From Patescibacteria group bacterium (lineage in GTDB: Bacteria > Patescibacteriota > Patescibacteriia > XYB2-FULL-38-15): a stretch of DNA of 64,000 nucleotides. The position numbers were made by a program, and so were the translations under genes. The stretch covers positions 3,246 through 67,245 of the forward strand of contig JBGSRW010000006.1 in NCBI GenBank assembly GCA_041737355.1, written 5' to 3'. The notes below the pieces were generated by a model, which made no database searches, was not told the DNA's origin, and saw only the letters and a list, made by a program, of their open reading frames with translations. Position 1 is the first letter of the stretch. Each line of letters opens with the position of its first letter. Positions 383-59,571 of this stretch are shown here, in pieces.

Positions 383-1789
383 ATGCCGGAACGCGAGGAA
401 ACAAAAAATAAAATCACCAAACCCAACGAACCGTCAATTGCCATTGTCGGAAGGGCCAATGTCGGAAAATCAACTCTTTTCAACCGTCTTTTGGAACGGC
501 CCAAGGCAATGGTTTCTCCGATTGCCGGAACAACCAGGGACAGAAATTACGGCCGCGCCCGCTGGCGCGGTATGGATTTAATAATGGTGGACACGGGCGG
601 TCTCGAGGATGCCCAACCGTTAACCCAGGGCATTAAAAAACAAGTCGACATCGCTATTGCCAAAGCCGACCTTATTTTTTTTCTGATTGATATGAAAAGT
701 GGGATCCTTCCCCAGGACAGGACTATCGCCAAATTTTTAAAAAAATTGGGGAAACCCGTAATCCTGGTCGGGAATAAAGCCGACTCCCCTGAAATCATGG
801 ACCGCGCGGTGGAAAAGGAATGGCTAAAATTAAATTTTGGAAAACCTATCCCTGTATCCGCGGCTAACGGCGCCGGAACGGGCGATCTTCTGGATAAGGC
901 ATTTTCGGCCCTAAAAATAAAGTCGGCTAAAAAATCCGAAAATAATGACGTTGAGGCTATTCCTCCGATCAGAGTCGCGATTGTTGGAAAACCTAACGCG
1001 GGGAAATCATCTCTTGTTAATTCCCTCCTTGGCGAAGAGAGAGTTCTTGTAAGCGAAATACCCTTTACCACCCGCGAACCGCAGGACACTCTTTTGATTT
1101 ACGAAGATCAGCCTTTTCTTATTATCGATACGGTCGGGATGAGAAAAAACGCCAAAGTCGAGCCGGGCCTTGAAAGAGTCGGCGTCAAACGGAGTATCGC
1201 CGCCATGGAACGGGCCGATGTCGTGCTTTTTATTACCGAAGCCCAAAGCCAGATGACGGTCCAGGACAAACATCTCGCCCAGATGATTACTGAAAAAAAT
1301 ACCGGCTTAATCATTATCGCCAATAAATGGGATCTCGTAGAGGCCAAAGGTCCGGCAACGCCCAACCTATTTATAAATTATTACCGCGAATTTTTCCCAT
1401 CCCTGGCCTGGGCACCCATTCTTTTCGCCTCGGCCAAGACCGGAGAAAAAGTCCAAAAAATATTCGAAGCGATTTTAACCGTCAAAAAAGAACGGGAAAA
1501 ATTTTTGAGACAGGATCAACTGGGTAATTTTCTTCATCAAACCCTGGCCAAGCATTGGGCGGTTGTCCACCAAAGAAAAAAATCCGGCTTCGGCGCGCGG
1601 CCGTTCATAAAAAAAATCATACAAACCGGAATCCGTCCGCCCGCTTTCCAAATTGTTACGACCTCAAAAGAAAGAATTCCCGATGGTTTCATAAAATATA
1701 TTGAACGCCACATGAGAGAAAGCTTCGGATTCACAGGAACTCCGATCAGGATGGAAATAAAACAAGTTAAGGTGTCAAGGGATAAATAA
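383..1789 (+). CDS. der: GTPase Der/EngA (two tandem GTP-binding domains plus a KH-like C-terminal domain)
   Basis: Two G1 motifs (GRANVGKST, GKPNAGKSS), DTGG/DTVG and NKAD/NKWD motifs; 468 aa. Confidence 0.9.
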   Translation: MPEREETKNKITKPNEPSIAIVGRANVGKSTLFNRLLERPKAMVSPIAGTTRDRNYGRARWRGMDLIMVDTGGLEDAQPLTQGIKKQVDIAIAKADLIFFLIDMKSGILPQDRTIAKFLKKLGKPVILVGNKADSPEIMDRAVEKEWLKLNFGKPIPVSAANGAGTGDLLDKAFSALKIKSAKKSENNDVEAIPPIRVAIVGKPNAGKSSLVNSLLGEERVLVSEIPFTTREPQDTLLIYEDQPFLIIDTVGMRKNAKVEPGLERVGVKRSIAAMERADVVLFITEAQSQMTVQDKHLAQMITEKNTGLIIIANKWDLVEAKGPATPNLFINYYREFFPSLAWAPILFASAKTGEKVQKIFEAILTVKKEREKFLRQDQLGNFLHQTLAKHWAVVHQRKKSGFGARPFIKKIIQTGIRPPAFQIVTTSKERIPDGFIKYIERHMRESFGFTGTPIRMEIKQVKVSRDK

Positions 1790-1794
1790 ATTAT

Positions 1795-2352
1795 ATGAAA
1801 TTGGTTGTCGGCCTGGGAAACCCGGGCAAGGAATACGAAAAGACGCGGCACAACATCGGTTTTGAAATTGCCGAAATAATTGCCGAAGCCGCCTGGAAAA
1901 TAAATAAAAAATTCAGCGCGGAGATATCCGAAGGGAAAATCGGCCGGGAAAAAATTATTTTTTTGAAACCGCAAACTTTTATGAACGATTCCGGCAGAGC
2001 GGTTGCCGCGGCAGCCGGTTTTTACAAAATAAAACCTGCCGAAATTATCGTTATCCACGACGATATTGATTTGCCTCTCGGGAAAATAAGAATAAAAAAA
2101 GACGGCTCATCCGGGGGTCATCGCGGCGTGGAATCGATTATCACGGCACTCGGATCCCGGGATTTTCTTCGCCTCAAGATCGGCGTCGCTCCGGAGTCTA
2201 GGCCAAAAAATTTCAACGCAGCCAATTTTGTTTTAAAAAAATTCGGTAAAGCCGAAGACAAAACTCTGGAAAAAACAATCAAAAAAGCAACCGAAGCGGC
2301 TGCCTTGATTTTATCGGGAGAACCGGAGCGGGCGATGAATCTTTTCAATTAA
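1795..2352 (+). CDS. pth: peptidyl-tRNA hydrolase
   Basis: N-terminus MKLVVGLGNPGKEYEKTRHNIGF is the canonical Pth start; 185 aa. Confidence 0.9.
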   Translation: MKLVVGLGNPGKEYEKTRHNIGFEIAEIIAEAAWKINKKFSAEISEGKIGREKIIFLKPQTFMNDSGRAVAAAAGFYKIKPAEIIVIHDDIDLPLGKIRIKKDGSSGGHRGVESIITALGSRDFLRLKIGVAPESRPKNFNAANFVLKKFGKAEDKTLEKTIKKATEAAALILSGEPERAMNLFN

Positions 2353-2449
2353 TGCCCCGCCCATAACACTGCCTGCCAGCGTAAAGCCCATTCCGAAAAC
2401 GGAAAAAACTTTAACTTGTGGCTACTTGCGCTAGTCAGGAGGGTGACCG

Positions 2450-3643
2450 TTGCTTTCGCCGCTCGCAGGCAGAGGTATGGACAAGGATTCTTCCGAGTTT
2501 CCGATAATAAACTCTAACAAATTTAAAAATTTTGTCAACCCCATGATGCGAGAAGATGACCTAAAATATTGGGTCGCTATTTCCCGTAATCCAAAAATTG
2601 GCGCGACCCGTCTCGTAAGACTCTATAATTTTTTCCATTCCATGAAAGAAGCCTGGCAGGCTTCTTTTTCCGATTTAATAAGATCCGGGCTTGATGAAAA
2701 TATTATCCACGATTTTCTGGCGCAAAAAATGACAATTAATCCCGACGCTGAATGGGAAAAAATGGCTAAAGAAAATATCAAAGTTATAACCGTTAACGAT
2801 GAGCATTATCCAAAACTTTTAAAAGAAATCTGGAATCCGCCGGCCCTGCTTTATTTCTTAGGACATCTTCCGACGGACGAAGATTTTAATCTCGCCGTTG
2901 TCGGAACAAGAAAAATAAGCACTTACGGCCGGCAGCTGACCTCAATTCTTGTACGCGATCTCGTGCAAAACGGATTTACGGTTGTGAGCGGCCTGGCTTT
3001 GGGTGTTGACGCCCTGGCCCATAAAACAACGGTTGACGCCGGGGGAAAAACTATCGCCGTTCTGGGTTCGGGTATCGATTCGGAAAGTATTTATCCGGTA
3101 CAAAACCGCTATCTCGTTTCGCAAATTATCGATTCGGGCGGAGCAATAATCTCCGAGTATCCGCTTGGTTCAATCGCCCTGCCAACCAATTTCCCACAGA
3201 GAAACAGAATTGTCTCCGGCCTGTCGCTTGGCACCCTGGTAATAGAGGCGGCCGAAGAATCCGGCGCCTTGATTACCGCCAAATGCGCCCTTGAGCAAAA
3301 CCGCGAAGTTTTTGCCGTTCCCGGAAGTATTTTCAGCCCGACTTCGGCCGGACCGAACAAGCTCATCAAAATGGGCGCTAAAACCGTCACGACGGTTGCC
3401 GATATTTTGGAAACTCTTAATTTGTCGCAAGCCGCCGATTTTACCAGAAACCGAAAAACTCTTCCCGCCTCGCCGGAAGAAGAAAAAATCCTGACAAATC
3501 TATCACTTGAACCGACCCATGTCGACAAGCTGATTTTAACCTCGGGACTTGACGCGGCAAAAGTCGGTGCTATACTAACCCTCATGGAAATGAAGGGAAT
3601 GATCAGGAATCTCGGCGGAATGAACTATGTTTTGATGAAATAA
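2450..3643 (+). CDS. dprA: DNA processing protein DprA (Smf)
   Basis: DprA Rossmann core (GLALGVDALAHKTTVDAGGKTIAVLGSGID) and a C-terminal winged helix. TTG start preceded by AGGAGGGTGA; an alternative ATG at 2478. Confidence 0.8.
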   Translation: MLSPLAGRGMDKDSSEFPIINSNKFKNFVNPMMREDDLKYWVAISRNPKIGATRLVRLYNFFHSMKEAWQASFSDLIRSGLDENIIHDFLAQKMTINPDAEWEKMAKENIKVITVNDEHYPKLLKEIWNPPALLYFLGHLPTDEDFNLAVVGTRKISTYGRQLTSILVRDLVQNGFTVVSGLALGVDALAHKTTVDAGGKTIAVLGSGIDSESIYPVQNRYLVSQIIDSGGAIISEYPLGSIALPTNFPQRNRIVSGLSLGTLVIEAAEESGALITAKCALEQNREVFAVPGSIFSPTSAGPNKLIKMGAKTVTTVADILETLNLSQAADFTRNRKTLPASPEEEKILTNLSLEPTHVDKLILTSGLDAAKVGAILTLMEMKGMIRNLGGMNYVLMK

Positions 3644-5898: not shown

Positions 5899-5912
5899 AA
5901 ATCTCCGACAAA

Positions 5913-5941
5913 AAACACCCCGGTCTTCGCCGGGGTGTTTC
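5913..5941. terminator. bidirectional rho-independent terminator between topA (+) and the 515-aa gene (-)
   Basis: Perfect hairpin aacaccccgg-tcttcg-ccggggtgtt flanked by A/T runs on both sides. Confidence 0.75.
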
Positions 5942-5964
5942 GATTCAATCTCCGGAAATATTAT

Positions 5965-7512
5965 TTATTTTTTCCCCTTCTTTTTTCTCTCTTCTTCTCC
6001 TAATATCCTCAAAGCTTCGTCCAACATATCGTCAGGGAAAGCCTCGTCGAGCGCAGCTCGTCTGCCCCACCAAGCTTTTTTATTAAATTCTTCACTCTTT
6101 ACGGACATGTCTTCGTCTATTAAATATTCGTAAGTCTTGCGATCAGTAAACAGAACTGCTTCTCCGTAAGGCTCTAGCGCCTTGTCAGATTTCTCTAGCG
6201 CATTTTCTAATTCCTCAGATTGCAACATCTTACTTGCTCTTTCCAACGCAATCCTTGCTCCCAGCGCATCTCTAACCCAGGCTATTATATTGTCCATTTC
6301 GTCTTCATCGAGTTCCTCTCCGCTTGCAAAAAGTTCAGATGCCTTTTTGATATTTGCTAGCCATTCTCCCTCCGTCAATCGGCGTGCTATTGCAGATGCA
6401 ACGGGAACAGCTCTGTCTCCCCCCCTACCCCTTGCTATCTCACACGCCGTAGAAAAAGCTTTTCGGGCTTCTTGCCGGGGGGAAAGTACGCCAAATTCTA
6501 TTGGCATTTCTAGCGATCCGGTAATATCGTCTCCGACCTCGACTCTCAAGCTTTGTCTTTTAACACCCCTTTTAACGGGTACCAAAACTTCCGGTTTACC
6601 CGGCCAACACAATTTTATACCTTTTTCCGTCGACTTTACCTCTAGCTTTGCTTCGGGTCCGAGGTGCGGAAGGGGAAATCTCATTTCAACCCGCTCACCA
6701 TCAAGGGAGAGACTAGAATCTCCTAAGTATAGATAGTGCGTCCTTGAAATCCACTCTGCCCTTTCTTTCCTGTAAGTCTCTCTCCACTCGCCGTCTTCCC
6801 TAACTTTTTCTTGCAAAAAGGCCTCATCTTCCGGATGTAGATTACTGCAGTGCCATTCCCACATTATTTTTTTTCTATCCGTCCCCTTTTCCTCAAACTC
6901 CCCGGTACGAGCCCCCGGTTGTATCGCACTCCAAGGAGCTATATCGGGGCCATATTTTTTTGTTGCCTCATAGGCTGCTCGGCCATGCACCCATGAATTT
7001 GGCATTTTCGCCGCTACCTCAGTTCTCTGCTCTACCGCTTCCCCTAAATCCTTTTTTATTCCGGTAATCCAGGGAAGATTTTCTTTAGAAAGATTGGCAA
7101 GAGTTCGCTGGGCTAAATCCAACTTAGCGGCTCTCTCTAGCAAATCTTTTTGCTCCTCTTCAATTTGCCATTCCTGAAGTCCTTTCTTCGAGTAATCTGA
7201 CTTGAATATAAGGTCTATATATTCTTTCAGATCCGATCTGCCAACTACTTCCGCAACTGCCTTTTCTTTTTCCTTAAAATACTGCTCGAGTTCCCGCAAC
7301 ATTTCTTGATTCAATTGTTTACTCTCTCCGTCATACCATGCTCCATAAGCTGATGCCAAAATTTCAATAAATTCGTTAGGTGTTCTAGGTCCTTCCTCCC
7401 TTACCATCCGATCGAAATCACCATAGCCTTCGAAAATTTCATCAAATTTTTTTGTTTTCTTTGTTCCCTGTCCAGCTGCTGATTCGGGAGAAAATCTTCC
7501 TTCTCCATTCAT
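5965..7512 (-). CDS. hypothetical 515-aa highly charged (E/K/R/D-rich) protein with no recognisable domain (module copy A gene)
   Basis: Long ORF, purine-rich coding strand, terminator downstream and the conserved (AG)n leader module upstream. No motifs recognised. Confidence 0.6.
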   Translation of the reverse strand: MNGEGRFSPESAAGQGTKKTKKFDEIFEGYGDFDRMVREEGPRTPNEFIEILASAYGAWYDGESKQLNQEMLRELEQYFKEKEKAVAEVVGRSDLKEYIDLIFKSDYSKKGLQEWQIEEEQKDLLERAAKLDLAQRTLANLSKENLPWITGIKKDLGEAVEQRTEVAAKMPNSWVHGRAAYEATKKYGPDIAPWSAIQPGARTGEFEEKGTDRKKIMWEWHCSNLHPEDEAFLQEKVREDGEWRETYRKERAEWISRTHYLYLGDSSLSLDGERVEMRFPLPHLGPEAKLEVKSTEKGIKLCWPGKPEVLVPVKRGVKRQSLRVEVGDDITGSLEMPIEFGVLSPRQEARKAFSTACEIARGRGGDRAVPVASAIARRLTEGEWLANIKKASELFASGEELDEDEMDNIIAWVRDALGARIALERASKMLQSEELENALEKSDKALEPYGEAVLFTDRKTYEYLIDEDMSVKSEEFNKKAWWGRRAALDEAFPDDMLDEALRILGEEERKKKGKK

Positions 7513-7600
7513 AAATTTAAAAAATAATAATTAACTCCTCCAATTAAAATAGTACTCTCTCTCTCTCTCTCTCTCTGGTTTTTGCAATTGAAAAAAATGA
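7513..7600 (-). promoter_or_regulatory. conserved leader/promoter module copy A: TTGCAA ... (AG)11 ... TACTAT ... GGAGGAG ... TAATTATTATTTTTTAAATTT ATG
   Basis: (CT)11 at 7555-7576 on the + strand. Near-identical architecture at 20692-20770. Confidence 0.6.
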
Positions 7601-7654
7601 CTTTTTGTCAAGGGTTATTTACAAAACCACCATTTTTATATAAACTTAATCGGT

Positions 7655-15751: not shown

Positions 15752-17332
15752 TTATTTCTTTCTTTGACGCAAGATCTGCCAGACCATAATCCCGGCCATC
15801 GCGCCAACGAAGATCAGCCAGGCGACCATGCCGGCGGCAAAAATACTTTTGGTGTAAACCGAAGCCCAGTTGTAGGGAACCATTCCGTACCAGTTGGTTT
15901 CACCATAATGATACCACCCGGCAAGCCAAATAATCCCCACGCCGACCGTGATAATAAGTGCCAGACTCTGGAAAATCCAAGCGACTATATGGGCGGCCTT
16001 TGATTTGGTAAAAAATTGCAACAATGTACAGGCCGTGAATATCAGACCGGGCGGAGCTATGAATCCCAAGACGAGAATTATGCTTAGAACAACAAAGAAA
16101 ATAAGAACGCCGAGCAGTCCGCCTTGCCAATTGGACTCCCTCGCTCCCACTTTGTCGTTATTGGAAGCGGCGCGCGGATAAAGATCATAGGTCATTTCCG
16201 AAGGCTGCATATATCGAGACATCTTCGTAAGATAATTTTTCCCAGCCTGGGGCTTTACCCAAGGTTCACCGTTAGATTCCACGGCGAGCCTTTCAATATC
16301 TTTTCTTTTAACCCAATCCGCGTAATCGGTATTAAAGCCAGGCAATTCTTGTTTGCTGTCGGAAAAAACGTAAAGCATGATTGAAACGTTTTCCTGCCAA
16401 TAAGGACGCGGCGGCGCGATAGGATAAAGCTCTGGTTCGGTCGGTGCCGGCGCGGCCGCCCCGGTCCCACAATCGGATGGACCGCAGGTACACTGTCCGG
16501 AGATACAACAAGGGGTATCTTGACCGATAACTTGCGGGCAAAATAACCCGCCACATTGGTCGCTGCTCGCACAATTTTGCATTACTCGTGCTTCATCGGT
16601 TACTGCCACGCCCGAGGCTGAATTGCCCTCCTCCGTTAAAGGCACTGGCCATGGCTCTGATCCGGGCTGTTTAAGATATTCTGCGATTCCGGAAATTTTT
16701 AATGGATAGACTATTTTTGAAGATGAAAAAATAAATTTTAAAGGTACGGCATGGCCTTCTGCAAGCTGCGCCTCCACTCCGGCAGAAAGCGACCCCGTGT
16801 CTATTTTAATAGCCGTAAAATACCATTTATTGTCAATGTAGTCGTTCAGCAAATATTTCGCTTCTTCAGGAAAATTATATTTATTATCAGCAAGCCATTT
16901 TGTCAGAGCGTCGGGATTATCAGCCTCAAGGACGGTAATATCGTAATATTCGACTTTCTTGGTTTCAACCACTGTCACGCCTTTACCAACGGCCGCGCTT
17001 TCCGCTCCGCCGCTATACATCGGCATTACCCGGTTGTCGTATTGCGGTTCGGTTAATTTAGCCAGGGCGGTAAAAAGTTCATCGGTTGACTTGGAAACCT
17101 CGGGCCGGGCAGGTGTCGGGACAATCCAGCTAAACTTTTTTGCGTCACCCCGGAAAGTTATGGAAACAATCATGGTTTCCACATTTTTTTCATGAAAAAT
17201 TACTGCCTTTTGGTCGGTCTCCTGCATCCAGTAATCGGGCGGCGGGAAAATAACGCCGTCGGCGTAAGCGACGGCCGGAAAAACCAACGCGGCCAATCCA
17301 ATAACTGCAAAAAACTTTTTAAGGATTTTCAT
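15752..17332 (-). CDS. secreted DUF2330-family protein with a Cys-rich central segment and C-terminal transmembrane helices
   Basis: Signal peptide MKILKKFFAVIGLAALVFPAVAYA, a CASSDQCGGLFCPQ...CCISGQCTCGPSDCG cluster and 3-4 C-terminal TM helices. Confidence 0.6.
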   Translation of the reverse strand: MKILKKFFAVIGLAALVFPAVAYADGVIFPPPDYWMQETDQKAVIFHEKNVETMIVSITFRGDAKKFSWIVPTPARPEVSKSTDELFTALAKLTEPQYDNRVMPMYSGGAESAAVGKGVTVVETKKVEYYDITVLEADNPDALTKWLADNKYNFPEEAKYLLNDYIDNKWYFTAIKIDTGSLSAGVEAQLAEGHAVPLKFIFSSSKIVYPLKISGIAEYLKQPGSEPWPVPLTEEGNSASGVAVTDEARVMQNCASSDQCGGLFCPQVIGQDTPCCISGQCTCGPSDCGTGAAAPAPTEPELYPIAPPRPYWQENVSIMLYVFSDSKQELPGFNTDYADWVKRKDIERLAVESNGEPWVKPQAGKNYLTKMSRYMQPSEMTYDLYPRAASNNDKVGARESNWQGGLLGVLIFFVVLSIILVLGFIAPPGLIFTACTLLQFFTKSKAAHIVAWIFQSLALIITVGVGIIWLAGWYHYGETNWYGMVPYNWASVYTKSIFAAGMVAWLIFVGAMAGIMVWQILRQRKK

Positions 17333-17396
17333 AATTCTCTATATTTAATTTTTATATCCCTAATATTTTATTTTCCCGCCAAATACTGCGCGCCCG

Positions 17397-20167: not shown

Positions 20168-20196
20168 AAACCCCGCCATTTCTGGCGGGGTATTTC
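20168..20196. terminator. rho-independent terminator downstream of the 156-aa gene
   Basis: Hairpin ccccgcca-tttc-tggcgggg followed by a T-rich tail on the minus strand. Confidence 0.7.
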
Positions 20197-20220: not shown

Positions 20221-20691
20221 TTAAAGTTTCCCGAGAGCGTTCGAGATTTTTTCAAGCCCTTCTTGTGCCCTCTGAATCTGTTCTTGATAAATTTTTTCTC
20301 CTTTTTCCAATATTTTTTTTGTTTCCCCGATTCCGGGTATATCATATGTTTTATGCCAGTCCTCATCTGCTATAGAAAAATGAGAGATCGAATGCAGCGC
20401 CTCTCCGGAGTCAAGGATTCTAATTTTTTCAATTGTCTCCCAATTGATTGGAATTTTTAGTGTTGAGGGACTATCCAAAAAATCTTCACATTCATCGAAT
20501 ATCTTTGCCGCCCTTTCTTGCGTGCCTTGCCTTCTTGCCTTGTCCCACACCTGTCTTTCCCCAGTCGCGCCAAAGTGCTCTTGCAGCCAACGGATTTCTT
20601 GTGCCAGTCTCTGAAAAATAGCTGGCTCTGATTCGGTCTTATCTCCCTGAACTCCCTCGGGAGCCCCTCCTCTTTCCATATTTTTTCCCAT
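20221..20691 (-). CDS. hypothetical 156-aa acidic protein (module copy B gene)
   Basis: ORF preceded by the conserved (AG)10 leader module. Its N-terminus (MERGGAPEGVQGDKTE) loosely resembles the copy-A protein N-terminus (MNGEGRFSPESAAGQGTKKT). Confidence 0.55.
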   Translation of the reverse strand: MGKNMERGGAPEGVQGDKTESEPAIFQRLAQEIRWLQEHFGATGERQVWDKARRQGTQERAAKIFDECEDFLDSPSTLKIPINWETIEKIRILDSGEALHSISHFSIADEDWHKTYDIPGIGETKKILEKGEKIYQEQIQRAQEGLEKISNALGKL

Positions 20692-20770
20692 ATTTTAAAA
20701 ATTAATAATTATCTCTTCCGCTTCCTATAGTACTCTCTCTCTCTCTCTCTCTGATTTGCAAGCCCCAATT
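20692..20770 (-). promoter_or_regulatory. conserved leader/promoter module copy B: TTGCAA ... (AG)10 ... TACTAT ... GGAAG ... TAATTATTAATTTTTAAAAT ATG
   Basis: (CT)10 at 20733-20752 on the + strand; same flanks as copy A. Confidence 0.6.
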
Positions 20771-20793
20771 TTACTTAAATATGGAACAAAAAA

Positions 20794-20815
20794 GCGGCCG
20801 TTCCGGCCGCCCTAA
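20794..20815 (-). terminator. terminator after the HD-hydrolase operon
   Basis: Minus-strand hairpin gggcggccggaacggccgc followed by tttttt. Confidence 0.6.
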
Positions 20816-26534: not shown

Positions 26535-27734
26535 TTGAAAAAGCAGATCGTTACGGCTTATGGTAAAACTTCTCTTGATGTAAGGCAGCTTCCCGGGGCG
26601 AACATCTTCGTCTCGCTGGAAAAAGCCATTTTCCCGACGGAAAAGAAAAAGCCCGGAGAAAAACAGCAAAGGGCGGAAATCCCGGCGGGAGCCATTCTCC
26701 TGCCCCATTGGAGCGGTTCCGGTTTCAACGCCCAGCGAGGTTACGTTGTCTACGCAAACGGCCTGTACGAGGCCCTGCGGGCGACAACGCACATCTTCTT
26801 CGGCTACGGAACTCGCGGCAACAAAGGAGAACTCCAGACGCTCGAAACGATGTCGAGACAACTAATCGACATCGTTTCCGTTCTGACTGCTGGCAAGGAA
26901 GCCGGGAGCAACCGGCTAACGGCGGTCCAGACCGAACTTGCGGTTATGGCCGAAGAAATGGCCGCGGTCCTGAACCAGACAAAACGCGAGGCCAGGGACA
27001 AAATCGACGCCTCTAAGGCGCTCGAAGTTTCCCATCCTTCCGGAAAGATGGTTCAAAATCTTCCGGCCAACGCGGTACGTCTTGCGGCCGCCCAACGGCG
27101 CATCGAACGGCGCCAAGACGAGGTGCGGAGAATCGCCGCCCGGCTCGTTTCTTGGGAACAGGTTCTGGCCTCAGAAATCGGCCGGACGTGGGATGCCCTG
27201 AATTGGTTTCGCAAGATGATCGACTCCGAAACGAAGCGCCTCTCGGGCCGATGGACGGACAGGGAGAGGGATGTTTTCCTCAACCGCGCCGGCTGGGCCA
27301 AGGCGCATCTTCTCCCGAGCATCGATGCCGAACCTTTCGTCAAAACCGCGCGCCTCATCCGGCGCGATCTTGGCCAGGCCATGTCTGCCGCTGGCGAGCA
27401 GGAGAAGGATAAGGTGGCCGTGGCGCTGAACCGCATCCTCGCCTCGCTCCGCTTCAAGGACGCTCAGCGAGCCTTTGAAGAAAAAATCCTTCTGCCTTTT
27501 TCCGTCCGACAGGAACTCGGTATTTTGACGCAAAACGACATGAGGCATTTTCGGGGCTGCACCGAAAACTTCCGGGAACGCCTGACCGTTTTGTCGGACC
27601 AGGGTTTCGCGAGTCCGCGCAAAGAGGAAATCATCATCCGCCTGAAACTCGCCGTGATCGAAATTGACCGGCTTGGCGTTGACGGTGCCGAGATCGTAAA
27701 AGACGCGCTGAAACGCGCTTCTCATCTGCTTTAG
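26535..27734 (+). CDS. hypothetical 399-aa GC-rich orphan protein
   Basis: TTG start 6 nt after AAGGAGGGAG; about 58% GC; terminator downstream. No motif recognised. Confidence 0.6.
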   Translation: MKKQIVTAYGKTSLDVRQLPGANIFVSLEKAIFPTEKKKPGEKQQRAEIPAGAILLPHWSGSGFNAQRGYVVYANGLYEALRATTHIFFGYGTRGNKGELQTLETMSRQLIDIVSVLTAGKEAGSNRLTAVQTELAVMAEEMAAVLNQTKREARDKIDASKALEVSHPSGKMVQNLPANAVRLAAAQRRIERRQDEVRRIAARLVSWEQVLASEIGRTWDALNWFRKMIDSETKRLSGRWTDRERDVFLNRAGWAKAHLLPSIDAEPFVKTARLIRRDLGQAMSAAGEQEKDKVAVALNRILASLRFKDAQRAFEEKILLPFSVRQELGILTQNDMRHFRGCTENFRERLTVLSDQGFASPRKEEIIIRLKLAVIEIDRLGVDGAEIVKDALKRASHLL

Positions 27735-58578: not shown

Positions 58579-59571
58579 CTAACCCGAGAGCCGGACCGAC
58601 GGAACGAGCCGGCGGTACCTTGCCCGAAGCTTACCGTTCAGTGCGGCATTCCGGGGAAGGCCTCGGACCAAGAGTTCGATTCTCCCGCTTACAACGTGGC
58701 TTCTTACCTGGAGCACTTCGTTGGAGCCCTCTCTTTCGTTGTAGGCAGTCCGGAGACAGACCGGTTCGTCCTGATCGAGGATGTCGCAGGAGATCTCCTT
58801 CATGACTACCCAGGCAAGCAGATACTCCTCAAGCGAGAGCACCTCCCAACCAGCGGGCGCCTGCCGCTCGAATTCGCTGAAGTTCTTACCATGCCGCGGC
58901 GCGCTTCCGCCGATCTCCGCCCAGAACCAGTAGCCTTCGCTTGTGGGAGAGAAGGCAATCCAGCTCCTGTCTCCCTCCCGCAGGGTCGAATGGCCTCCGA
59001 GGCCGATGGCCTCCATCAGTCGGCCGTAGGAAACCTTGACCTCTGGCGGCCGGTAGATCAGCTGTTTGTTTTCCCCGCAGCCGGTCTCGAATTCCTCGGC
59101 CGTAATCGCCGCCCTGGGTACCTCGATACCGTTGAAGTCGTAGAGGCGGAAGAGATTCTCCGCGGTCTGCCGCCAGTTTTCCACGGGGTCATCAGTTGCC
59201 GCAGAGGGCGGAACCGACGGACATATCCGCCTGGCCACCGTAGCCGTTTTGGGACGAACATCTTCCGACTCGCCCACGAACTGTGCCGCCGCAAGCTGGA
59301 TATCGAGCTCCGCTACACGCGTGCGGAGAAGCTCGAGTTCCTCGCGCTCTTCCGGCTTGAGCTCCGGACAGACGAGCCTCGTCGATTCGGAATCGGAGGT
59401 GTTGCCCTCCAGAGCCGCTTCGATTGCCAACTTGAAACCGCGAAGCGCGATCTCCGCCGTCATTTCCTTACGTTCAACCAAGTCGCAAAGACGCTGCCAC
59501 CTGCCGGCCATCCGCTCCATAAGAGCGAGATCGGCAAGAAGCTTGTCGATTCTCTTCGGGTCTCTTTCCAT
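58579..59571 (-). CDS. hypothetical 330-aa GC-rich orphan protein
   Basis: GGAGGAGGAAGG SD; a TTGACA promoter at about 59640-59674; about 58% GC. Confidence 0.55.
   Translation of the reverse strand: MERDPKRIDKLLADLALMERMAGRWQRLCDLVERKEMTAEIALRGFKLAIEAALEGNTSDSESTRLVCPELKPEEREELELLRTRVAELDIQLAAAQFVGESEDVRPKTATVARRICPSVPPSAATDDPVENWRQTAENLFRLYDFNGIEVPRAAITAEEFETGCGENKQLIYRPPEVKVSYGRLMEAIGLGGHSTLREGDRSWIAFSPTSEGYWFWAEIGGSAPRHGKNFSEFERQAPAGWEVLSLEEYLLAWVVMKEISCDILDQDEPVCLRTAYNEREGSNEVLQVRSHVVSGRIELLVRGLPRNAALNGKLRARYRRLVPSVRLSG

Follow-up and report, generated by a model that had tools for sequence, protein, structure and literature searches.

A probable slippage-tuned promoter module in front of unrelated genes in a Patescibacteria lineage

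Why should two unrelated genes of one bacterial chromosome begin behind the same leader, built around a perfect AG dinucleotide tract? The question is raised by a 64-kb stretch of a Patescibacteria group bacterium (assembly GCA_041737355.1, contig JBGSRW010000006.1, positions 3,246 to 67,245 of the forward strand; the whole analysed stretch of 64,000 nucleotides is called the window below), in which a module of about 75 nt precedes two minus-strand open reading frames (ORFs). A preliminary description of this DNA had proposed that the tract sits between two promoter elements and switches them by slipped-strand mispairing, or alternatively that the module is the conserved 5' end of a family of cassettes. 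Comparison with relatives leads us to think, with moderate confidence, that the module is the front of a portable expression unit whose promoter is tuned by slippage. That this amounts to true phase variation at the level of populations seems somewhat less probable.

The module and its copies

Both modules follow the same order on the minus strand, namely TTGCAA, an (AG)11 or (AG)10 tract, TACTAT, a purine block, an AT-rich leader and ATG. Read directly from the sequence, module 1 occupies 7513-7587 and module 2 occupies 20692-20761. The strand from 7587 to 7510 (-) reads TTGCAA-AAACC-(AG)11-TACTAT-TTTAATT-GGAGGAG-TTAATTATTATTTTTTAAATTT-ATG, and that from 20761 to 20689 (-) reads TTGCAA-ATC-(AG)10-TACTAT-AGGAAGC-GGAAGAG-ATAATTATTAATTTTTAAAAT-ATG. 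In unit 1, the sequence and the comparison of copies place the -35-like hexamer TTGCAA, the first conserved part of the module, at 7582..7587; it is followed by a spacer of 27 nt (7555..7581), made of AAACC and a perfect (AG)11 tract (7555-7576), and by the -10-like hexamer TACTAT (7549..7554), which is invariant among copies. TTTAATT and GGAGGAG (7535..7548), a putative discriminator and mRNA 5' end, then lead into an A/T-rich, unstructured leader of 22 nt (7513..7534) and the ATG at 7512. The same evidence places the unit 2 hexamers at 20756..20761 (TTGCAA) and 20727..20732 (TACTAT), separated by a 23-nt spacer (20733..20755) of ATC and a perfect (AG)10 tract (20733-20752). The purine block of unit 2, AGGAAGC plus GGAAGAG, is at 20713..20726, and its A/T-rich leader extends over 20680..20712 if the start codon is the ATG at 20679 rather than the first ATG at 20691. 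The NCBI call uses this second ATG (MERGG...), which comes after a 12-nt local duplication, and alignment with the other copies makes it the likely true start.

The resemblance of the two modules is far beyond chance, and it is real and no artefact. Tracts of (AG)≥5 occur in the window only in the two modules, where 0.03 would be expected, and no match to TTGCAA-N-(AG)6 is expected by chance. Tandem Repeats Finder reported no dinucleotide array in the window besides the two module tracts, and a nucleotide profile built from all known copies found no third one there, so that the module is indeed confined to two sites of the window, as the preliminary description had said. Re-reading the minus strand also bore out the structure and positions that it gave, and hexamer-to-hexamer distances reproduced its spacers of 27 and 23 nt.

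Copies in relatives were collected from orthologues of the 515-aa protein encoded by unit 1, from one scan of a genome collection, from one metagenome scan whose pattern left the AG tract optional, and by walking out from the adjacent rel gene in strains 97-83% identical. Most raw matches were spurious: 17 of the 18 from the genome collection were chance (AG)3-4 occurrences in unrelated phyla, and 11 of the 16 from metagenomes were a single unrelated coding sequence. This yielded 13 distinct full modules, the two of the window and 11 from related Patescibacteria genomes and metagenomes. The preliminary description would have abandoned the switch if no other copies existed and if repeat length were invariant; eleven distinct copies lie outside the window, and the repeat varies from 5 to 11 units among relatives.

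TTGCAA is present in 12 of the 13 copies (TTGCAG in the other), and TACTAT in all 13 as well as in a partial copy, L027b. Twelve copies have the arrangement TTGCAA, 3-5 nt, (AG)n, TACTAT, and since 3-5 fixed bases stand ahead of the tract the spacer is about 5+2n. The repeat number n is 5, 6 (four copies), 7 (four copies), 8, 10 and 11, with one decayed tract. The resulting spacers measure 15 nt in one copy, 17 nt in five, 19 nt in four and 21 nt in one, with 23 nt in window unit 2 and 27 nt in window unit 1. The modal value of 17 nt, reached at n=6, is the canonical spacing of a sigma-70 promoter.

The tract is uninterrupted in 12 of the 13 copies. With tract bases diverging like the rest of the module, at 8.2% per site from its consensus, one would expect about 4 tracts to be perfect, and the probability of at least 12 is P≤5e-6, a value that is indicative only because the copies are not fully independent. 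The sole interrupted tract, in copy L042a, carries point mutations (AAATCAGAGAGGGAGGG, AGAGAGGGAGGG) and has a spacer of exactly 17 nt. In 160.6 kb of the lineage, all dinucleotide runs of at least 6 units are module tracts, and there is one homopolymer of at least 9. Between the window and L003 the synonymous sites of the cargo are saturated (proportion of synonymous differences, pS, 0.76), and the 30-nt module core differs at 2-4 positions. Tracts that stay pure while they vary in length bear the mark of slippage that continues, of selection that favours mutability, or of the two together.

A tract kept perfect might instead be needed for its sequence, because a regulator of the GAGA type or one that recognises polypurine binds there, or because the promoter needs H-DNA (triplex) or another supercoiling-sensitive element, with length a secondary matter. 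Three facts suit such an element: as a mirror repeat, (AG)n can adopt the H-DNA form; the non-template strand consists almost wholly of purines from the start of the tract to the end of GGAGGAG; and unit 1 adjoins topA. However, L042a keeps the length and loses the AG sequence, the length varies more than two-fold among copies, and we know of no bacterial regulator of this GAGA-type or polypurine-binding kind, nor do the present data point to one. We consider a requirement for the sequence itself very unlikely.

A probable promoter with a variable spacer

Other promoters of the lineage are of the ordinary TTGxxx-16/18-TAxxxT type. In the window, TTGCAA-16-TATAAT precedes tuf, with TTGCAA as its -35, and predicted -10 boxes lie at a median of about 33 nt from the start codon; across modules the distance from TACTAT to ATG is constant at 35-38 nt. 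Strains without the module have TTGACA-17/18-TATCAT, TAAGAT or TATTAT in the same chromosomal slot between rel and topA (L039, L040, L041, L043, L044). An orphan TTGACA also lies 18 nt upstream of the unit 1 TTGCAA (7606..7611, minus strand) and, from this likeness, is best read as a remnant of the promoter of the module-less strains or as common with it. Two other pairings of hexamers were rejected: TACTAT as a -35 with AAYTAT as the -10 matches the -35 at 1/6 positions and was dismissed by inspection, and the upstream TTGACA with TTGCAA as the -10 is poor because TTGCAA has neither A2 nor T6.

A terminator ends about 15-30 nt before TTGCAA in module 2 and in L003, L027a, L029 and L039; for module 2 it is the terminator of the upstream HD-domain gene (20791..20813, minus strand), 29 nt before the hexamer. 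This leaves no room for another promoter, and the AG tract would not be part of a transcribed leader unless read through. Four copies, which follow a terminator and do not adjoin rel, have TTATCCACA, a DnaA-box consensus, exactly 8 nt upstream of TTGCAA (L003:29-37; L027:~2290-2298 (-); L029:~936-944 (-); L039:~1385-1393 (-)). Such fixed geometry is as expected for a promoter-proximal factor site and argues that TTGCAA is a functional promoter element. TTATCCACA is not found upstream of either window module, and its one occurrence in the window (28952) is a chance-level count.

The absence of room for a promoter upstream also bears on the idea that the tract acts in RNA, that is, that the AG repeat and the purine blocks are transcribed as a 5' untranslated region (UTR) and serve as a platform for a CsrA-like or other protein, or form a riboswitch or other structured leader. 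In its favour, the start codon has several GGA/GGAG motifs around it, and GGAGGAG is conserved and yet is not a ribosome binding site: it resembles a Shine-Dalgarno (SD) sequence, and it lies 23-29 nt before ATG in a genome nearly free of such sites. Most window genes have A/T-rich leaders that abut the ATG, with exceptions such as tuf (AAGGAG at about -13) and GC-rich ORFs, so that the A/T block of the module is the normal context of initiation in this genome. GGAGGAG may nevertheless act in RNA, perhaps as a 5' stabiliser or standby site, and can do so without the AG tract being transcribed. A structured leader or riboswitch can be discarded, since RNAalifold found 0 pairs from TACTAT to codon 10 in 14 sequences, leader folding was no better than that of shuffles (z-scores 0.1 to 1.3), and Rfam matched only tRNAs in the window and nothing at the module. 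An upstream mini-ORF, or GGAGGAG as the SD sequence of an alternative start, was likewise set aside, given an in-frame stop in module 1 and a start and frame that are not conserved. An RNA-level role for the AG tract thus appears to us highly improbable.

The picture that we favour is of a sigma-70-type promoter (-35 TTGCAA, -10 TACTAT) with the purine block at about the mRNA 5' end, where the transcript would begin at about GGAGGAG, followed by the unstructured A/T leader, a handful of N-terminal codons that the units have in common, one or occasionally two variable cargo ORFs and a conserved terminator. Slipped-strand mispairing in replication would change n, lengthening or shortening the spacer by 2 bp at a time and taking it through its optimum of 17 bp (n=6), and the change of spacer would tune or switch transcription of the cargo. 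A simple sequence repeat (SSR) lies between the -35-like and -10-like hexamers with a spacer of 16-18 bp within reach, and n is polymorphic among relatives with conserved flanks and a tract kept pure, which are the features of a contingency locus of this class that can be read from sequence. Where transcription starts, that expression depends on n and can switch back and forth in one population, and what GGAGGAG does are what we infer from this arrangement. The hexamers found 17 bp upstream of TACTAT in the window units, AGAGAG and ATCAGA, are poor matches to a -35; with these and spacers of 27 and 23 bp, both window genes are predicted to be off, with intact ORFs. At n=11 and n=10 they would be silent or very weakly transcribed, and their long tracts would be the most mutable.

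Several observations weigh against a working switch. The window copies stand 5 and 3 repeat units above the optimum, and they look more like the outcome of long-term drift or lock-off than like a poised toggle. Only 5 of the 13 copies are at 17 nt and four are at 19 nt, a poor spacing for an E. coli-type sigma-70 promoter, and because the copies are not phylogenetically independent the argument from the modal value rests on fewer than 13 events. An independent Logan assembly of the window strain, L001, also has n=11 in unit 1; within-strain length heterogeneity was thus not seen in these two assemblies, and look-ups for the 156-/152-aa products were empty. The downstream half of the module, moreover, persists without the switch in two partial copies, L027b (TACTAT to ATG, with neither -35 nor AG tract) and L033b (the A/T block only). 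The slipped-strand switch first proposed is in part supported: the conserved hexamers, the tract of 5-11 units and the modal spacer of 17 nt speak for it, the window copies are not poised at an on/off boundary, and both assemblies agree on n=11 for unit 1.

A rival reading takes the tract as neutral, carried as a passenger in a promoter-leader module that spreads by recombination, with transcription from TACTAT alone (a -10-only promoter) or by read-through and with n having no effect. The module does move and recombine as a block before unrelated cargos, giving mosaic N-termini, L027b does without the -35 and the tract, and spacers spread over 15-27 nt with 5 of 13 at 17. Yet a neutral tract should gather interruptions, and 12 of 13 tracts are perfect at the probability given above; TTGCAA, conserved in 12 of 13, always flanks it; the modal spacing is exactly 17 and the sole decayed tract is frozen at that length; and TTATCCACA keeps its 8-nt distance from TTGCAA in four copies. 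We regard the neutral passenger as unlikely, and retain the slippage-tuned promoter for the discussion of the units as a whole.

Cargo genes, terminators and the rel-topA slot

The cargo of unit 1 (5965..7512, minus strand) is a highly charged protein of 515 aa without a Pfam or PADLOC match, and that of unit 2 (20221..20691, minus strand) a charged protein of 156 aa, or 152 aa from the NCBI start; both ORFs are as first described. The two had been called orphans with loosely similar N-termini. BLASTP between them gave E>2, hence no homology, and the likeness is not a relation between proteins: only a few codons are alike, and these form a short stub of the module itself. The label of orphan suits the 152/156-aa protein, which has no homologue outside its own genome. 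The 515-aa protein is no orphan in the strict sense, with orthologues at 84% and 57% identity and 97 remote relatives, some of them about 1000 aa long and weakly matching Lon_C and TPR. The ratio of nonsynonymous to synonymous substitution rates (dN/dS) is 0.28 for the 515-aa cargo, and values of 0.19-0.28 mark the cargos as real genes.

At least 9 unrelated cargo genes are headed by the module. Besides the ~515-aa family (window, L002, L003) and the 152/156-aa protein of window unit 2, there are cargos of 99 aa (L012, L033b), 230 aa (L022), 188/190 aa (L026, L029), 153 and 162 aa (L027), 87 aa (L033a), 173 aa (L039) and 193 and 115 aa (L042). All have about 20% Asp+Glu and about 16% Lys+Arg. 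Nothing credible was returned by Pfam and PADLOC for any of them, the weak matches being MTase_II on the 152-aa protein (E 1.7e-4) and a VapB-like match on the 87-aa cargo (E 0.02). AlphaFold2 models had a mean confidence (pLDDT) of 57.5 for the 515-aa protein and 52.7 for the unit 2 cargo, and Foldseek against PDB found no fold match (best E 0.23), which with models this weak is uninformative.

Across the downstream proteins the common N-terminal codons stand in front of unrelated bodies, and the N-termini are mosaic. L022 and L029 have their first 17 residues in common and nothing else, while L026 and L029 share the body and differ at the N-terminus, which indicates recombination within the module and the first codons. 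Unrelated cargos also end in similar tails rich in Lys, Gly and Glu (…KKKGKK*, …SEGKK*, …NRGRK*), for instance at 5965-5990 of the window and in L002, L003 and L027; conservation at the 3' end of the unit may thus reach into the last codons of the ORF, much as that at the 5' end takes in the first ones.

A feature absent from the preliminary description is the homologous 3' end of the two window units. Each ORF was said to end at a hairpin terminator, which folding upholds (-27.3 kcal/mol, z -4.3, for unit 1; -26.8 kcal/mol, z -6.5, for unit 2). The unit 1 terminator AAACACCCCGGCGAAGACCGGGGTGTTTTTT (5907..5943, minus strand) is bidirectional and common to the convergent topA, and the unit 2 terminator AAATACCCCGCCAGAAATGGCGGGGTTTTTT (20170..20191, minus strand) is homologous to it. 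In fact a homologous terminator closes every unit, AATC(A/G)AAA(C/T)ACCCCGG...CCGGGGTGTTTTTT, with compensatory changes in the stem; its arm occurs perfectly in the window only at the two cargo ends. Like ordinary intrinsic terminators, the 3' ends of the units consist of a GC-rich hairpin and then a U-tract. With one module heading at least 9 unrelated cargos and paired with a conserved terminator, the suggestion of a cassette family with a conserved 5' end is sustained.

Units occur singly or in tandem (L042, L027, L033), in the rel-topA slot and elsewhere. Second genes keep part of the module: that of L027b runs from TACTAT to ATG directly after upstream stop codons, its junction exactly at the AG/TACTAT boundary, and that of L033b retains the A/T block. 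Such tandem units, conserved ends around unrelated cargos, the L027b junction and a fast turnover of slot contents (0-3 genes, among them a retron-type reverse transcriptase and GC-rich foreign genes) could mean that the module is the boundary of a mobile element, with MITE-like (miniature inverted-repeat transposable element), insertion sequence-like or integron-like ends and the AG tract as crossover or attachment site. However, no integrase or transposase flanks any locus examined; no IntI tyrosine recombinase stands next to the units, whose flanks are rel, parB, parA, topA and dprA or the HD gene and lon; and no attC was seen at unit 3' ends by inspection of the hairpin terminators, no formal attC model having been run. 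Nothing convincing was seen in the window units by way of terminal inverted repeats or target duplications, and direct repeats do not flank them, the sole end-to-end inverted match being a 75% complementary A/T-rich 20-mer in unit 1 only. The 3' ends are moreover shared with a non-coding unit of module-less strains. A phage origin was rejected on 0 matches in two scans of viral contigs, and homologous recombination between conserved ends, which suffices, would be the simplest mechanism of exchange. There is in our judgement little chance that the module is a mobile-element boundary, and we continue with a promoter-bearing unit exchanged by recombination.

The 20-nt match of unit 1 joins the start of its 3' UTR (5954-5973) to its 5' leader (7519-7538); pairing is possible in principle, but unit 2 has no counterpart and the match is probably due to chance. 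Several relatives, unlike the window, have a MITE-like palindrome (GTCATTGCGAG…CTCGCAATGAC) immediately behind their unit terminators (L002:~2250-2330; L022:~3060-3140; L026:~170-250; L042, in two places; L044:~60-130), and in L042 it also stands between the first unit and the second.

Close homologues of rel come from entries named 'Patescibacteria group bacterium' and 'Candidatus Magasanikbacteria', in keeping with a bacterium of the Candidate Phyla Radiation. Ordinary chromosomal DNA makes up the window, with the gene order der, pth, dprA, topA, unit 1, rel, parB, parA, tRNAs, scpAB, lon, unit 2, an HD-domain gene, AspRS/AsnRS and ribosomal-protein operons. A 22-nt tandem repeat of 2.3 copies (ATTTTCATATCCCTAATATTTA) lies at 17325-17375, between lon and the start of a DUF2330 gene. 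All long loci are syntenic, with scpAB, a glycosyltransferase gene, parA, parB, rel, the slot and a converging topA. The slot contains the module and the 515-aa gene in the window, the module and a 99-aa gene in L012, the module with 87-aa and 99-aa genes in L033, two complete units in L042, and a retron-type reverse transcriptase with a two-gene unit in L027. GC-rich, SD-led foreign genes fill it in L038 and L039, the latter also with a module unit, and L040, L041, L043 and L044 have no ORF there, only a unit of ~95 nt from promoter to terminator, with a long hairpin as its predicted fold. Slot content already differs between strains whose rel genes are 96-97% identical, and by this comparison the rel-topA interval is a hot spot of gene turnover in the lineage.

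The ~95-nt non-coding unit (L040:~2768-2893 (-); L041, L043, L044), a long conserved hairpin followed by the terminator of the cargo units, has no Rfam match and may encode a small RNA. The opposite strand carries another non-coding element that is conserved (…CCAATGGTGATGCTAGGGTGGTCGCTCGGACTCC…; L040:2742-2817 (+), L041:2829-2862 (+); also in L043 and upstream of the L022 module), has the GTGATGCTAGG motif in common with the candidate small RNA, and gave as its sole Rfam match a sub-threshold BSnc120 (30 bits, against a gathering score of 114). The L027 reverse transcriptase (2339-3337 (-)) is GC-rich, matches PADLOC reverse transcriptase families (E 1e-41), has YADD and VTG motifs and stands directly upstream of the module unit; its msr/msd region could be a GC-rich stretch that precedes it. 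The slot genes L038:3-260 (-) and L039:1446-2771 (-), GC-rich, with strong SD sequences and beside rel genes 96-97% identical to that of the window, appear to be recent foreign insertions into a genome without SD use. Two window ORFs, 26535-27734 (+) and 58579-59571 (-), have a GC content of 0.53-0.55 against about 0.44, strong SD sequences and no Pfam match, and were possibly acquired horizontally. L012 (OZ246416.1), an 886-kb complete chromosome from a metagenome-assembled genome, is labelled 'uncultured Gammaproteobacteria'; it is syntenic with the Patescibacteria lineage and highly similar to it, and the label is probably wrong.

Taken further, the units might form an integrase-free cassette system of the Candidate Phyla Radiation (CPR), in which a portable frame, switched stochastically by (AG)n, serves a rapidly exchanged pool of unrelated, fast-evolving charged proteins with the rel-topA interval as its hot spot, where retron-type reverse transcriptases and foreign genes also gather, the whole providing contingency loci with which ultra-small episymbionts would bet-hedge the expression of host-interaction or anti-phage factors. 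We offer this wider scheme tentatively, as possible and not as probable.

Significance and comparison with known systems

Repeat-driven promoter switching is textbook knowledge for a handful of pathogens, while the CPR are hard to culture and their regulation and interplay with hosts are largely unknown. We found no paper that joins phase variation, simple sequence repeats and Patescibacteria; literature on the CPR mentions phase variation only tangentially, in one case for a repeat in a coding region. To our knowledge, the SSR contingency strategy is documented only in host-adapted pathogens and mycoplasmas. If the model is true, n relative to 6 would be an on/off marker of a gene set that could be read in metagenomes from sequence alone, the fast-evolving cargo family would probably be important at the interface with hosts or phages, and the lineage would offer a compact natural promoter-leader-terminator frame that works without an SD site. 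The rel-topA interval, in addition, is identified as the place where the lineage turns over genes.

Repeats in promoter spacers have several precedents, namely the poly-G of porA, the (TA)n of hifA/B, B. pertussis fim and M. hyorhinis vlp (PMC3899988). The closest is Haemophilus influenzae hifA/hifB, with (TA)n in the -35/-10 spacer (van Ham et al. 1993, reviewed in PMC3899988). As in the module, a perfect dinucleotide repeat shifts the spacer in 2-bp steps through an optimum. In contrast, hifA/B has a TA repeat in a bidirectional overlapping promoter and serves fimbriae, while the module has an AG repeat, a single promoter and charged cargos that look cytoplasmic, its window tracts are 3-5 units off the optimum, and its switching is a prediction. 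In Neisseria meningitidis, opc has a poly-C spacer tract. In porA of the same species, slippage controls spacer length and gives graded expression (PMC3899988), a likeness to the module. Unlike the module, porA and opc use homopolymers, move in 1-bp steps and encode outer-membrane proteins of a pathogen.

In Mycoplasma mycoides, Vmm is switched by a promoter repeat (PMC2628566). Vmm and vlp resemble the module in belonging to host-dependent bacteria with small genomes and in having an SSR in promoters that serve small, variable proteins, and in vlp, too, a common promoter and 5' region heads divergent genes. They encode surface lipoproteins with signal peptides, whereas the module's cargos have no signal peptide or lipobox, come from unrelated families and are paired with a conserved terminator.

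An integron combines a Pc promoter and attI with exchangeable cassettes. The slot is similar in offering a fixed expression platform and a conserved site for one to three exchangeable, unrelated small ORFs, of which the downstream ones lack a full promoter. It differs in having no integrase and no attC, in units that end in a promoter and an intrinsic terminator, and in exchange that presumably proceeds by homologous recombination. The GGAGGAG block recalls STAB-SD, which stabilises the 5' end of the cryIIIA mRNA in B. thuringiensis (Agaisse & Lereclus 1996, as listed in PMC7509114), being SD-like, near the putative mRNA 5' end and too far from the start to be a ribosome binding site; the host genome of the module is mostly without SD use, and the likeness is a suggestion only. 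The mechanism is thus a known one, that of hifA/B, porA, vlp and Vmm, and what sets the module apart is the AG unit, the CPR host, cargos that are unrelated and do not look secreted, and the packaging, found repeatedly in a hypervariable slot, of promoter, leader and terminator into one frame.

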